Under the pieces are notes generated by a model. It did no database searches. It was given only the letters and a program-made list of their open reading frames with translations, and was not told the DNA's origin. From Candidatus Micrarchaeota archaeon (lineage in GTDB: Archaea; Micrarchaeota; Micrarchaeia; Anstonellales; Bilamarchaeaceae), in NCBI GenBank assembly GCA_043821365.1, contig JBDRCX010000003.1:1-64000 (forward strand): a DNA stretch of 64,000 nt. Reading direction: 5' to 3'. How positions within the stretch are numbered: the first letter of the stretch is position 1; every line of letters starts with the position of its first letter. The position numbers and the translations under genes are program-made. Below are positions 15,469 to 61,019 of this stretch, piece after piece.

Positions 15469-16680
15469 CTAGAAAACGCCCAAGACATAATTTATCTTCT
15501 CAATTGTTTCTATTATCAAAATACTATCATTTTTTGTTAATTTATTTTCATTTGTCATTTTTTCTATTTTGTTAAAAATTACAAAAATTCTTCTATAGGC
15601 AAGTTTGGTGTTCAAGTCATCATCCATTGCATTTGTAAAACCTTCCAATAGTTTTTTGCTCATCTTATTTCCTTTTTCAGAGTTTCCTTTATTTTTTATT
15701 TTTCTAAGTTTTGTTATTAATTTCCTTATTTTTTCACATTCACAAATTCTACTTTTGAATTTTTCTACTGTAAAATCAAGTGGATTTCTGTATTTCTCTG
15801 ATGTTAAATAGAATCTAAGACACTTTGGTGGAATCCCAGCTTTTTTCAATGGATCAACATATAGTACATTACCAGTTCTCTTTGACATTTTTCTTTTTCC
15901 AATGGTAAGATGTTTGGCATGAAGCCAAAAATTAGCGAATTTTTTTCCAGTAGCACACTCACTCTGTGCAATCTCATTTTCATGATGTGGGAAGATATTA
16001 TCTGTTCCACCACAATGTATGTCTATTGTTTCACCCAGATAATGCATTGCTATTGCACTACACTCTATATGCCAACCTGGTCTCCCATCTCCAAACTTAC
16101 TTTTCCAAAATACTTTCCCATCTCCTCTTGACCAGAATTTCCATAATCTAAAGTCCCAGTGCCCTTCTTTTGCATAATCATCTCTTGCAATTTTTCCAAA
16201 ATACGTGTTTCTTATTTTTTTAAGCCTCCCATATTTCTTATATTTTTTAATATTAAAATAAATCCCGTCTTTTTCTTTTTTGCAATAGCCATTTTCACAT
16301 AATTTTTCTATCAATTTAACCATTTCCTCTATGTGTAGTGATGCTTTGACTATCTTATTTGGTTTTAACATCCCAAGTTCTTGAAAATCTGATAAGAATT
16401 TTTTTATCTTATTTTTTTGTATCGTTTCCATGTTTTTGTTTTCTTTTTTTGCCTGTGCCATTGCTTTATCTTCAATATCAGTTATGTTCATAATTCTCTT
16501 GACACAAAAACCTTTGAATATCAAATATCTAACTAATATATCCTCGAAGAGGTAGGTTCTGAAATTCCCAATGTGGGAGTAGGCATATACAGAAGGACCA
16601 CAAGTGTATATCTTGGCGGTTTTGCCATCGATTGGCAGAAATCCTCTCTTCTTTTTACTCATAGTGTCAAACAATTTCAT
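15469..16680 (-). CDS. cysS: Cysteinyl-tRNA synthetase-like protein, C-terminally short
   Basis: YTCGPSVY, HIGN, GRPGWHIECS, FPHHENE, KMSKR; ends LGVF. Start set at MKLFDT. Confidence 0.88.
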   Translation of the reverse strand: MKLFDTMSKKKRGFLPIDGKTAKIYTCGPSVYAYSHIGNFRTYLFEDILVRYLIFKGFCVKRIMNITDIEDKAMAQAKKENKNMETIQKNKIKKFLSDFQELGMLKPNKIVKASLHIEEMVKLIEKLCENGYCKKEKDGIYFNIKKYKKYGRLKKIRNTYFGKIARDDYAKEGHWDFRLWKFWSRGDGKVFWKSKFGDGRPGWHIECSAIAMHYLGETIDIHCGGTDNIFPHHENEIAQSECATGKKFANFWLHAKHLTIGKRKMSKRTGNVLYVDPLKKAGIPPKCLRFYLTSEKYRNPLDFTVEKFKSRICECEKIRKLITKLRKIKNKGNSEKGNKMSKKLLEGFTNAMDDDLNTKLAYRRIFVIFNKIEKMTNENKLTKNDSILIIETIEKINYVLGVF

Positions 16681-57870: not shown

Positions 57871-58024
57871 AAATTTTGAAGTTTATAAACTAATGTAACA
57901 ATTTTGTTTTGGTTAGATGAAACTTGCTTCGCAAGTTTGAGGATTCGGGAGGGGTATTATGCTTTGTGATGTTAATAAAATAAAAGGGATGTGTGAAACC
58001 GTAGGTTTCACAAACAAACAAAAA

Positions 58025-58150
58025 CGGGCCCAGAGGGATTTGAACCCTCGACCTGCGGATTCCACCTTTTACCAAAAAGTGGAGCCAAAAGTGGCTCTCC
58101 ATTTGATAAAATTAAAAGTCCGACGCTCTACCAAGCTGAGCTCTGGGCCC
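58025..58150 (-). tRNA. tRNA-Lys(UUU) with 52-nt intron at 37/38 (58061-58112)
   Basis: GGGCCCA/TGGGCCC, GCTC/GAGC, TCGGA-CTTTTA|A-TCCGC, GAGGG-TTCAAAT-CCCTC; intron folds into a long hairpin. Confidence 0.92.
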
Positions 58151-58198
58151 TGATTTGTATGGTAAATTATTTACATTCGTTTTAAAAACACCACTTGT

Positions 58199-58222
58199 GT
58201 CAACGCTTTTAAAAGCATTGAC
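58199..58222. promoter_or_regulatory. 24-bp near-perfect palindrome between divergent tRNA genes
   Basis: gtcaacgctttt-aaaagcattgac, one mismatch, central ttttaaaa. Confidence 0.55.
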
Positions 58223-58281
58223 GCCTATTTACATAACTTCGGGTTTGATTTGAACTGTAGTAGTCTAAATCATCTCGATTC

Positions 58282-58527
58282 GCCGGGTTGGCAGATCGGT
58301 TATGCATCCGCCTGCAACCGCTTTTATGAGGTTTTGTCTTTAGACAGAATCAATGATAAGCTGAAAGCGGAATAGAGGGGTTCAATGTACCTTTTTAGGA
58401 AAACGTTCTTGAACGAAACATCGTTCAAGATGCGTATGGAACGTCTTGACGTTCCATGACGAGGTACACCCAAAAACTGGGTTGCTATGTCGAATAAGAA
58501 GGTAGCGAACAATTCCTCTACCCGGCT
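58282..58527 (+). tRNA. tRNA-Cys(GCA) with two introns: 37/38 (58318-58365) and T-loop 58/59 (58386-58512)
   Basis: Spliced: GCCGGGT TG GCAG ATCGGTTA TGC A TCCGC CTGCAA|A GCGGA ATAG AGGGG TTCAA|TT CCTCT ACCCGGC T; U73 discriminator; BHB with GTTC/GAAC helix and two AAT bulges. Confidence 0.9.
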
Positions 58528-59899
58528 CTCTCTTTTTAGTTAGTTTGTGTTTTGTATCGAGGTAAAAGCCTTTCTATGCTTTTTGGTAGTTAACCAAAAC
58601 TCTTTTTTATGTAAGAACTTTCCTAAATACACTAATCCTAACATTACTGGAACTTCCCAAAACAATCCCATTGTTGTTCCTAGGGCAGCTTGTGAACTTA
58701 AACCAAAAAGAGTTATGGATGTAGCAATAGCGATTTCGAAATGGCTGGAAGAACCTATTATTACAGAAATTATTGCTTCTTTATATTTAAGTTTAAACAG
58801 TTTTGTCATGAAAATATTTATGGCAACAATGATCACAAAACCAAGCAATAATGGAACAGATACAAGTAGCATTTTTCCTGGATTTTTGAGTAGAACATCC
58901 CCATTTAAAGTAAATAAAACTATTAGTGTAAAAAGTAGTGCAAGAATTGAGATTTTACCAACAATTGGTTTGTATGTTGTTTCAAACCAATCTAATCCTT
59001 TTTTAGCAACAAGTACTTTTTTCGAGATATGCCCCATAATCAACGGTAATCCTATGAAAACAAGTACTGAAAGTAATAATGCAGTTACATCTAGGGGTAT
59101 CCCCTGTATTCCTGTAAGGAGTACAACAACAGGAGCATACAAAAACATAATTGTTAATGTGTTAATGCTTGTAGTTATCACATTTTGCTCTTGGTTTCCT
59201 TTTGCTAAACTTCCCCACACAATTACCATGGCAGTACAGGGACTTGAACCCAACAGTATCAAAGCAATAATTAACTGATCGTAACCTTTCAAAAAAATAT
59301 TTGCTAGAATAACCGTAATAATTGGAGCAATAATCCAATTAGATAAAAGTGTTAATAATATTGGTTTGGGTGCTTTTATTAGTTTTTTTACTTCTTTAAT
59401 TTGAAAGTTCAAAAGAGCTGGGTACATCATTAGAAATAAACAAATTCCAATTGGAATAGAAACATTTCCAATTTGCCAACTATTTAACAAAACGCTTAAT
59501 CCTGGGATATATTGAGAAAAAAGGATACCAATCAACATACAGGTAAAAACCCATACATACAAGTATTTTTCAAAATTATTTAATACCTTTTTCATACTTT
59601 AACCTTTCTATCTAATTCCTTATGAATATCCTAAGATCCAAAGAATGCATCAAATATTGAAATGTGTATTCTGCTTTTTTCTGTATTGTTTAATCTGGGC
59701 ATGGATGTCCTTCCGACCTATCCAAAGCAATTCTCCAAGAATATACTTATAATGGGGGTGGTGAGAAAATTATTCTGTGGTATGTTGATCGTTAACTGTC
59801 CTTTATAAAAGCTATCCGCTGAAATGTTGAAAAAGCCTCCAAATCACCTGGCGTCAAAGTAAACAAACACACTATTTTCTCTATGGCGTCTACCCGGCT
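58528..59899. mobile_element. Putative integrated mini-island at the tRNA-Cys 3' end carrying acr3
   Basis: 11-bp direct repeat tctacccggct at 58517-58527 and 59889-59899; no integrase inside. Confidence 0.5.
58540..59595 (-). CDS. acr3: Arsenite efflux transporter Acr3
   Basis: IGICLFLMMYP, LLSNWIIAP, LGSSPCTAMV, SSHFEIAIA, EVPVMLGLV. Confidence 0.93.
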   Translation of the reverse strand: MKKVLNNFEKYLYVWVFTCMLIGILFSQYIPGLSVLLNSWQIGNVSIPIGICLFLMMYPALLNFQIKEVKKLIKAPKPILLTLLSNWIIAPIITVILANIFLKGYDQLIIALILLGSSPCTAMVIVWGSLAKGNQEQNVITTSINTLTIMFLYAPVVVLLTGIQGIPLDVTALLLSVLVFIGLPLIMGHISKKVLVAKKGLDWFETTYKPIVGKISILALLFTLIVLFTLNGDVLLKNPGKMLLVSVPLLLGFVIIVAINIFMTKLFKLKYKEAIISVIIGSSSHFEIAIATSITLFGLSSQAALGTTMGLFWEVPVMLGLVYLGKFLHKKEFWLTTKKHRKAFTSIQNTN

Positions 59900-60752: not shown

Positions 60753-61019
60753 ATGGCCGGTATTCGAAGATTGATATTAGATGTGGTTATCCCATCAACA
60801 ATGCCCTCAAGTGAATTGGCAGTTAAATTAGCCAAACTTGGTGGCGTGGATGGAGTTGATATAATAACTCAGGAAGTTGAACATAGAGTTGATAAGATTA
60901 AAGTAACAATAGAAGGAGACGACATTAATTTTGAGTCAGTAAAAGTCGTACTTGATAAATTGGGTGCTTCACTTCAAGGTGTTGACCGCATCAGCTGCGG
61001 CAAGAGGTTAGTAAATTAA
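60753..61019 (+). CDS. DUF211-family protein
   Basis: GIRRLILDV, GVDGVDI, IKVTIEG, DRISCG. Confidence 0.8.
   Translation: MAGIRRLILDVVIPSTMPSSELAVKLAKLGGVDGVDIITQEVEHRVDKIKVTIEGDDINFESVKVVLDKLGASLQGVDRISCGKRLVN

Follow-up and report, generated by a model that had tools for sequence, protein, structure and literature searches.

The 64,000-nt window analyzed here, part of contig C3 of assembly G000 (1.2 Mb in 6 contigs, 36% G+C, 87% complete), in all likelihood carries a functional tRNA-Cys(GCA) gene, probably the sole copy of the genome, whose two bulge-helix-bulge (BHB) introns are cut out by the splicing endonuclease EndA and whose second intron is a copy of a repeated module into which a further cassette was later inserted. 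The three-exon gene spans 246 nt, positions 58282-58527 on the plus strand. GenBank records sharing its 5' exon are all Candidatus Micrarchaeota / Micrarchaeia MAGs, some of them labelled Bilamarchaeaceae. From the structure of the gene, the conservation of its splice motifs, the presence and absence of its introns among species and the enzyme genes encoded in the genome, we infer that both introns are spliced.

Exon 1 (58282-58317, 36 nt) provides the 5' strand of the acceptor stem, the D-arm (3 bp plus G13.A22), the 5' strand of the anticodon stem and the loop CTGCAA, which holds the anticodon GCA (58314-58316) and A37. It is followed at canonical position 37/38 by intron 1 (58318-58365, 48 nt). 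Exon 2 (58366-58385, 20 nt) consists of A38, the 3' strand of the anticodon stem, the variable loop ATAG, the T-stem 5' strand AGGGG and the T-loop residues TTCAA (54-58), where intron 2 (58386-58512, 127 nt) interrupts the T-loop at position 58/59. Exon 3 (58513-58527, 15 nt) contributes T59 and T60, the T-stem 3' strand CCTCT, the acceptor 3' strand ACCCGGC and the discriminator U73, with no encoded CCA; all five segments lie on the plus strand. The initial annotation had proposed a hidden tRNA-Cys with two introns, and the joined exons bear this out: they form a 71-nt cloverleaf that ARAGORN calls tRNA-Cys(GCA), with a 7-bp acceptor stem, a 3-bp D-stem plus G13.A22, the pair G53-C61, the T-loop TTCAATT and U73, and with a T-arm that is the uninterrupted T-arm of the closest sister species. 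Both tRNA-Cys identity marks are thus in place, GCA at 58314-58316 and U73 as the T at 58527. Removal of intron 2 alone suffices for ARAGORN to detect the gene, then with a 48-nt anticodon-loop intron, while the unspliced region returns no tRNA from ARAGORN or from Rfam (at the gathering threshold and at E up to 10). No ORF of at least 70 aa overlaps 58282-58527. Position 37 is A in this gene versus G37 in nearly all orthologues. A T5 tract on the same strand at 58533-58537, 6 nt 3' of the gene, is likely an archaeal terminator, and T-rich tracts trail almost all orthologues.

Inspection of the T-loop junction reveals a near-strict 3-4-3 BHB motif, in which the cut is placed by the rule of a 4-bp central helix, two bulge bases and then the cut. 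Its 5' half (58374-58386, plus) comprises the outer helix strand AGAGGG (58374-58379), the central helix strand GTTC (58380-58383) and the bulge AAT (58384-58386), cut after 58385; its 3' half (58507-58519, plus) comprises the central helix strand GAAC (58507-58510), the bulge AAT (58511-58513), cut after 58512, and the outer helix strand TCCTCT (58514-58519). The outer helix has 6 bp and the central helix pairs at four of four positions, which comes close to the textbook motif at 58/59 that had been described from these same strands and bulges. As had also been anticipated, the T-stem must adopt a shifted register in the precursor, its strands sliding by two such that 52:60, 51:61 and so on pair in place of the mature 53:61 and 52:62. 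The inner helix is drawn from the two ends of the intron, either as G58387-C58506 or as a 10-bp helix joining 58388-58397 with 58495-58504. Folding of the 246-nt precursor gives a minimum free energy (MFE) of -101.4 kcal/mol (z = -8.5; none of 200 shuffles was as stable), and the MFE structure contains the acceptor stem, the intron 1 hairpin and a domain made of the T-arm and intron 2. A fold constrained to the BHB lies only 0.3 kcal/mol above it; left unconstrained, the molecule prefers, by just this amount, to form the 10-bp helix and a 3x3 internal loop in place of the two bulges.

A multi-helix fold with so negative a z, in a region where standard tRNA finders are silent, could also be expected of a different RNA class, such as a reduced RNase P RNA or an unknown RNA occupying the ~250-nt structured region. 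This reading is already contradicted by the comparison of exons and introns, and we regard its probability as close to nil: the exons assemble into tRNA-Cys, orthologues with the same exons form a continuous range of sizes, the shortest being intron-free tRNAs of 71 nt and the longest genes of 265 nt, and neither RNase P nor any other Rfam family matches at E up to 10. Likewise, covariance models of self-splicing group I or II introns and of RNase P RNA find no match in 57900-58800 at E up to 10, and direct reading of intron 2 finds none of the UGAUGA or CUGA boxes of a box C/D guide intron.

Intron 1 has a more relaxed BHB, as it does in most orthologues. Next to a 5-bp anticodon stem, its central helix CTGC/GCTG forms three of four pairs with a U33.U mismatch, the bulges are AAC and AAA, each cut after the second A, and no clear inner helix is seen; the junction is fixed by the intron-free orthologues L024-L026 and L064. 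Within this intron lies a kink-turn-like motif (58326-58364, plus), made of AUGA, a 9-bp hairpin (58330-58351), AAU-GA-U and then CUGA. A core of the same kind, YUGA followed by a covarying stem of 3-9 bp and NNU-GA-U, occurs in ~15 of 33 distinct orthologues with a CGCTTTT-type intron 1 (L002-L057), and is missing from those intron 1 sequences that belong to the module type described below. The core could be an L7Ae-binding site. The intron offers no space for a methylation guide, as it has a single kink-turn-like core (UGA...GA) with the CUGA only 4 nt beyond.

To place these introns in an evolutionary context, the gene was compared with its counterparts in relatives. A tRNA-Lys(UUU) gene with a 53-nt canonical intron lies divergently upstream (58025-58150, minus), and this head-to-head tRNA-Lys(UUU)/tRNA-Cys pair is syntenic in nearly all relatives of the genus, so the tRNA-Cys loci compared are orthologous. 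In the closest species, G015, whose neighboring PLP enzyme and downstream ORF share 81% and 89% protein identity with those of the window, tRNA-Cys has intron 1 and lacks intron 2. Its T-arm and 3' end reproduce the predicted spliced product letter for letter, and it scores 37.9 bits against the Rfam tRNA model (gathering score 29). G024 and G008 likewise lack intron 2, and the uninterrupted T-arms of G015 (L002) and G024 (L004) are the same as that predicted for the window gene after splicing. Three genomes of other families carry intron-free 71-nt tRNA-Cys genes, one orthologue has only an 18-nt canonical intron, and another (L064) has intron 2 without intron 1.

Where the T-loop intron is present, its splice motif is preserved to a striking degree. 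Thirty distinct orthologous T-loop introns were found, 24-154 nt long and drawn from unrelated sequence families, and the register seen in the window recurs exactly in 29 of them with a four-of-four central helix, GTTC being paired with GAAC, GGAC, GAAT or GGGC. Such a comparison of orthologous introns had been called for at the outset, and it favors the proposed BHB. A central helix of this kind together with an inner helix of at least three of four pairs is present in 25 of the 30, versus none when the register is slid by 1 to 4 nt in either direction and a mean of 0.14 of 30 (maximum 3) in 1000 shuffles of the introns; the inner helices covary with the widely different intron sequences. The length of intron 2, which the initial annotation had taken to be exceptional, proves not to be so: at 127 nt it ranks fourth in the set, behind introns of 131, 134 and 154 nt in the same clade.

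The assembly was also searched for a second tRNA-Cys, since an intact copy elsewhere would have spoken against the gene as initially annotated. Rfam tRNA matches in G000 number 19, and neither ARAGORN with long introns allowed nor BLAST of the three exons over the 1.2 Mb returned another tRNA-Cys, a further copy or a fragment in this 87%-complete assembly. The sole other candidate, an ARAGORN "tRNA-Cys" at C6:765007-765208 (minus), was rejected, its G73 and an intron-free orthologue in G023 identifying it as tRNA-Arg(GCG); the gene is mislabeled because its 126-nt canonical intron, which starts with the module-like CCCCGTTTTTAGGAAG, is misplaced by ARAGORN. The window gene is very probably the only tRNA-Cys of G000; as the assembly is incomplete, "only copy" is probable rather than proven. 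The same incompleteness leaves room for a decaying pseudogene killed by its insertions, with the working tRNA-Cys in the unassembled 13% of the genome, and A37 in place of the usual G37, the relaxed motif of intron 1 and a T5 tract within intron 2 would suit such decay. We nevertheless consider it very unlikely, because the spliced tRNA retains every stem intact, no other BHB in the set is as good as that of intron 2 (6+4 bp), the T-loop intron is kept in the syntenic tRNA-Cys of 30 species, and 1.2 Mb of sequence holds no fragment of a second copy.

Splicing of such a gene would take an endonuclease that accepts non-canonical sites, together with a ligase, and G000 encodes both, in the form of an epsilon2-type EndA and of RtcB (470 bits). 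The 393-aa EndA, encoded on C6 (C6:408560-409741, minus), aligns over its full length with 4fz2, the structure of the ARMAN-2 epsilon2 enzyme (E 3.5e-132), and the GTYK loop with Y160/K161 is conserved in it. In ARMAN-2, mutation or deletion of the Y160/K161 loop impairs cleavage, especially of a T-loop intron substrate (PMC12397907), and the ARMAN-2 pre-tRNA-Cys(GCA), with a 13-nt intron at 59/60, is cleaved in vitro by the ARMAN-2 enzyme (PMC3239211, PMC12397907). Beside the epsilon2 enzyme, G000 has a second tRNA-intron endonuclease catalytic domain of 163 aa (C6:480404-480895; L036:1291-1782), which among enzymes of known structure is closest in sequence to 1a79 of M. jannaschii, an alpha4 enzyme (E 2.4e-9). 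The RtcB match (C6:673872-676544) falls into two pieces ~1.4 kb apart within one 910-aa open frame, which suggests an intein or other insertion in the ligase gene. CysRS is present as well, as two CysRS-family genes; both give strong matches to the catalytic domain (310 and 404 bits), at window 15754-16635 (minus) and at C6:32816-33697.

Dissection of intron 2 indicates that it is a composite of repeats. The three hairpins and the alternative GTACCT/AGGTAC pairing that the initial annotation had placed in this intron are all present, and the body of the intron can be divided into four segments on the plus strand. The first (58387-58403) is the 5' arm and loop of a module hairpin, GTACCTTTTT-AGG-AAAA, which doubles as the 5' strand of the BHB inner helix with 58495-58504. 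The second (58404-58461) is a 58-nt double-palindrome cassette with hairpin A (58407-58430), a spacer and hairpin B (58436-58457). The third (58462-58490) resumes the module with its 3' arm AGGTAC, the tail hairpin ACCCAAAAACTGGGT (58468-58482) and the motif TGCTAT, and the fourth (58495-58506) is a distal partial copy of the module 3' arm, TAAGAAGGTA-GC, which pairs with 58388-58397 as the BHB inner helix. The module itself is a hairpin-plus-tail unit of the form NNNN-T4-6-loop-A4-6-NNNN', followed by a small CCAAAAAC-loop hairpin and TGCTA, and is represented in intron 2 by the first 17 nt together with 58462-58490. Some 45 intact copies of it occur in G000, one of them near-identical and located inside another tRNA gene (C6:214442-214476), with further copies in other tRNA genes. 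A T5 tract (58392-58396) lies in the module hairpin of intron 2, and T4-T6 tracts lie in most module hairpins within tRNA genes. Because oligo-T signals termination in archaea, either these tracts are kept from terminating by their hairpin context, or some of the transcripts are lost.

Comparison with G006 separates the layers of this composite. The tRNA-Cys intron 2 of that genome is 70 nt long and collinear with the window intron over its whole length, its distal arm copy being AGAGGTGC, and it lacks 58404-58461 only; in the window the cassette splits the module hairpin between AGGAAAA and AGGTAC. Together with the absence of a T-loop intron from the closest species, G015 and G024, this upholds the earlier suggestion that the intron grew by capturing hairpin elements. 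The cassette consists of two palindromes of the GAACG...CGTTC family, of which G000 holds ~25, including 4 tandem pairs, and which form intergenic arrays in relatives. Of 40 genomes, only one besides G000 was found to have the full cassette, namely in the T-loop intron (59/60) of the G015 tRNA-Asp(GTC), at the same module position and with 84% identity. Since tRNA-Asp of G000 and tRNA-Cys of G015 both lack a T-loop intron, presence and absence in the Cys and Asp genes are reciprocal between the two species. These introns thus have the character of transposed, mobile tRNA introns, in that related introns sit in different tRNA genes and relatives retain empty sites. In L048 (JAZDMN010000002), a third genome, intron 1 of tRNA-Cys has this same two-hairpin block in its module, at the mirror-image position and inverted. 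That the insertions occupy one site of a palindromic target and face either way speaks for an event at the DNA level rather than the RNA level. Treating the cassette as an intron nested within intron 2 was considered and dropped, as neither sequence nor fold yields a BHB at its ends, and the cassette is counted as part of intron 2. Metagenome scans with the cassette core and with the exon-intron junction returned 0 matches each. As for the tRNA-Asp(GTC) genes themselves, that of G000 (C2:126019-126133, minus), called tRNA-SeC by ARAGORN, has a D-loop intron of TTGAACG-type palindromes, and its counterpart in G015 is interrupted several times, one of the introns being the cassette-bearing T-loop intron.

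The structure of intron 2 might instead be maintained for its own sake, that is, the intron or its nested cassette may be a functional RNA, for instance one that binds protein or regulates, circularized after excision and persisting, with its hairpins conserved on that account. In favor of this are the great stability of the fold (z = -8.5) and the known circularization of BHB introns excised in archaea (PMC12558985). In addition, the differences between the G000 and G015 copies of both cassette hairpins are paired and preserve the stems, the loop of one hairpin being the reverse complement of its counterpart. From the general pathway, excised intron 2 would indeed be expected to be circular (PMC12558985). 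Still, we judge a function of this sort unlikely. The intron is missing altogether from the closest species, and in others the site is filled by sequences unrelated to it. The cassette can face either way with respect to transcription, no Rfam family matches at E up to 10, and the same palindromes populate intergenic arrays that do not look transcribed. The paired changes between G000 and G015 fit symmetric DNA palindromes just as well as they fit a selected RNA structure, so that a lack of function is likely rather than certain. Returning to the reading of a module copy with a later cassette, we infer that the module arrived before the cassette and that intron 2 has no function of its own.

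Dispersed palindromes, often in tandem pairs or arrays, are typical of bacterial REP elements with their RAYT transposases and of mini-elements derived from IS200/IS605. The palindromes of the cassette resemble these in being 22-24 nt long and dispersed, in forming tandem pairs and arrays and in their paired stem changes. G000 has a single Y1 (IS200/IS605-type) transposase gene (C3:96659-97006), and ~130 nt upstream of it lies a tandem palindrome pair, an adjacency that is suggestive in that chance is unlikely by position alone. The Y1 transposase was nonetheless rejected as mobilizer of the cassette. The association is not reproduced in relatives, where none of 11 Y1 loci has a tandem pair within ~1.5 kb, and a Pfam search finds a Y1 gene in only 8 of 40 genomes, the cassette-carrying G015 not among them; for these reasons the cassette is not classed as a transposase-dependent element, and in this respect it differs from REP/RAYT systems.

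The initial annotation had further pointed to the T-loop as a region commonly used by integrases, a suggestion that finds no support at this locus. No integrase lies near the gene, whose neighbors are a glutamine synthetase, a PLP enzyme, an SBF/Acr3-type transporter, VIT1 and YgjP, and an integrated element at intron 2 was discarded on these grounds; the only att-like repeat is 3' of intron 2. This repeat consists of the last 11 nt of tRNA-Cys (TCTACCCGGCT, 58517-58527), which recur 1.37 kb downstream at 59889-59899, the two copies flanking the SBF/Acr3-type transporter gene (58540-59595, minus). In G015, a mere 238 nt separate tRNA-Cys from the orthologue of ORF 60753-61019 on its 3' side, and the ~2 kb of extra DNA in the window has the look of an old integration event at the 3' end of the tRNA, without an integrase. 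A separate element is found upstream of the gene in many orthologues, between a TATA-like box and the 5' end of tRNA-Cys, and consists of CCGGGTTG, a GAACG-type palindrome and CACCCAGC. It lies in the upstream 50 nt of L004, L005, L010, L011, L016, L019-L021, L048, L052 and L057, with a degenerate copy at ~58230-58281 of the window. Its two ends are similar to the 5' and 3' acceptor strands of tRNA-Cys, and it may be a leader minihelix or a duplication scar.

A T-loop intron in a Micrarchaeota tRNA-Cys is established biology and has been validated biochemically (PMC3239211). The ARMAN-2 (Candidatus Micrarchaeum acidiphilum) pre-tRNA-Cys(GCA) shares with the window gene the phylum, the tRNA, the arm and a three-unit endonuclease (PMC3239211, PMC3488258, PMC12397907; Fujishima et al. 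2011, Hirata et al. 2012). Its intron differs in being 13 nt long at 59/60 with a relaxed hBH/BHL motif and the only one described for the gene, whereas intron 2, located at 58/59 and 127 nt long, has a near-strict 3-4-3 motif, consists of repeats and shares its gene with a canonical intron. The window gene adds to the known multi-intron tRNA genes of epsilon2-bearing Micrarchaeota, and what is new is above all the composite, nested repeat structure. In Thermoproteales, near-identical introns in different tRNA genes and positions, present or absent between species, are described as transposed tRNA introns (Fujishima et al. 2010, as reported in PMC4090602), and the same combination of near-identical introns in different tRNAs with presence/absence between species argues here for intron gain at the DNA level. 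Thermoproteales differ from the present case in phylum and endonuclease type, and the introns described here are set apart by being modular, with palindromic cassettes nested in either orientation and with the same palindromes in intergenic DNA. Like intron 2, the haloarchaeal tRNA-Trp intron is ~100 nt or more in length and excised at a BHB, with circularization known for the box C/D guide RNA that it forms (PMC12558985, and works cited in PMC4090602) and expected here; unlike it, intron 2 has no C/D boxes and is not conserved even in sister species.

Taken as a whole, these results point to the following probable pathway. A precursor of ~250 nt or more would be transcribed and cut by the epsilon2-type splicing endonuclease at its two BHB motifs, relaxed for intron 1 and near-strict 3-4-3 for intron 2. 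In the latter, the central helix would pair G53-C56 with the last bases of the intron, and the inner helix would come from the two ends of the intron. RtcB would then join the three exons into the 71-nt tRNA and close the excised introns. Intron 2 would have originated as a lineage-specific copy of the hairpin-plus-tail module that forms many tRNA introns in the genus, and would code for nothing; the 58-nt REP-like GAACG...CGTTC double palindrome would have entered it later, at the DNA level. Such insertions may be harmless because the broad-specificity endonuclease removes anything that lies between two bulges.

More tentatively, and as a possibility that we put somewhat below even, this pathway may extend to how the introns were gained. 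A mobile DNA hairpin module may have landed in the conserved GGTTCRA T-loop sequence, bringing with it its own helix beside the cuts, and may then have offered AAAA^AGG as a landing pad, usable in either orientation, for a second, REP-like double palindrome, with the whole stack hidden from selection by epsilon2 excision. The mechanism by which archaeal tRNA introns are gained is still called unknown (PMC4090602), and this model, if true, would supply a concrete and testable one.

For the organism itself, with only 19 tRNAs found in G000 by standard tools, genes such as this tRNA-Cys need to be recovered by hand before coding capacity is judged. For the family, a single orthologous site presents a graded natural series that runs from no intron, through introns of 24-45 nt and a 70-nt module intron, to that same intron with a nested 58-nt cassette. 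The series provides defined substrates, and states before and after insertion, with which to test models of DNA-level insertion and the tolerance of the epsilon2 endonuclease for long, structured cargo.
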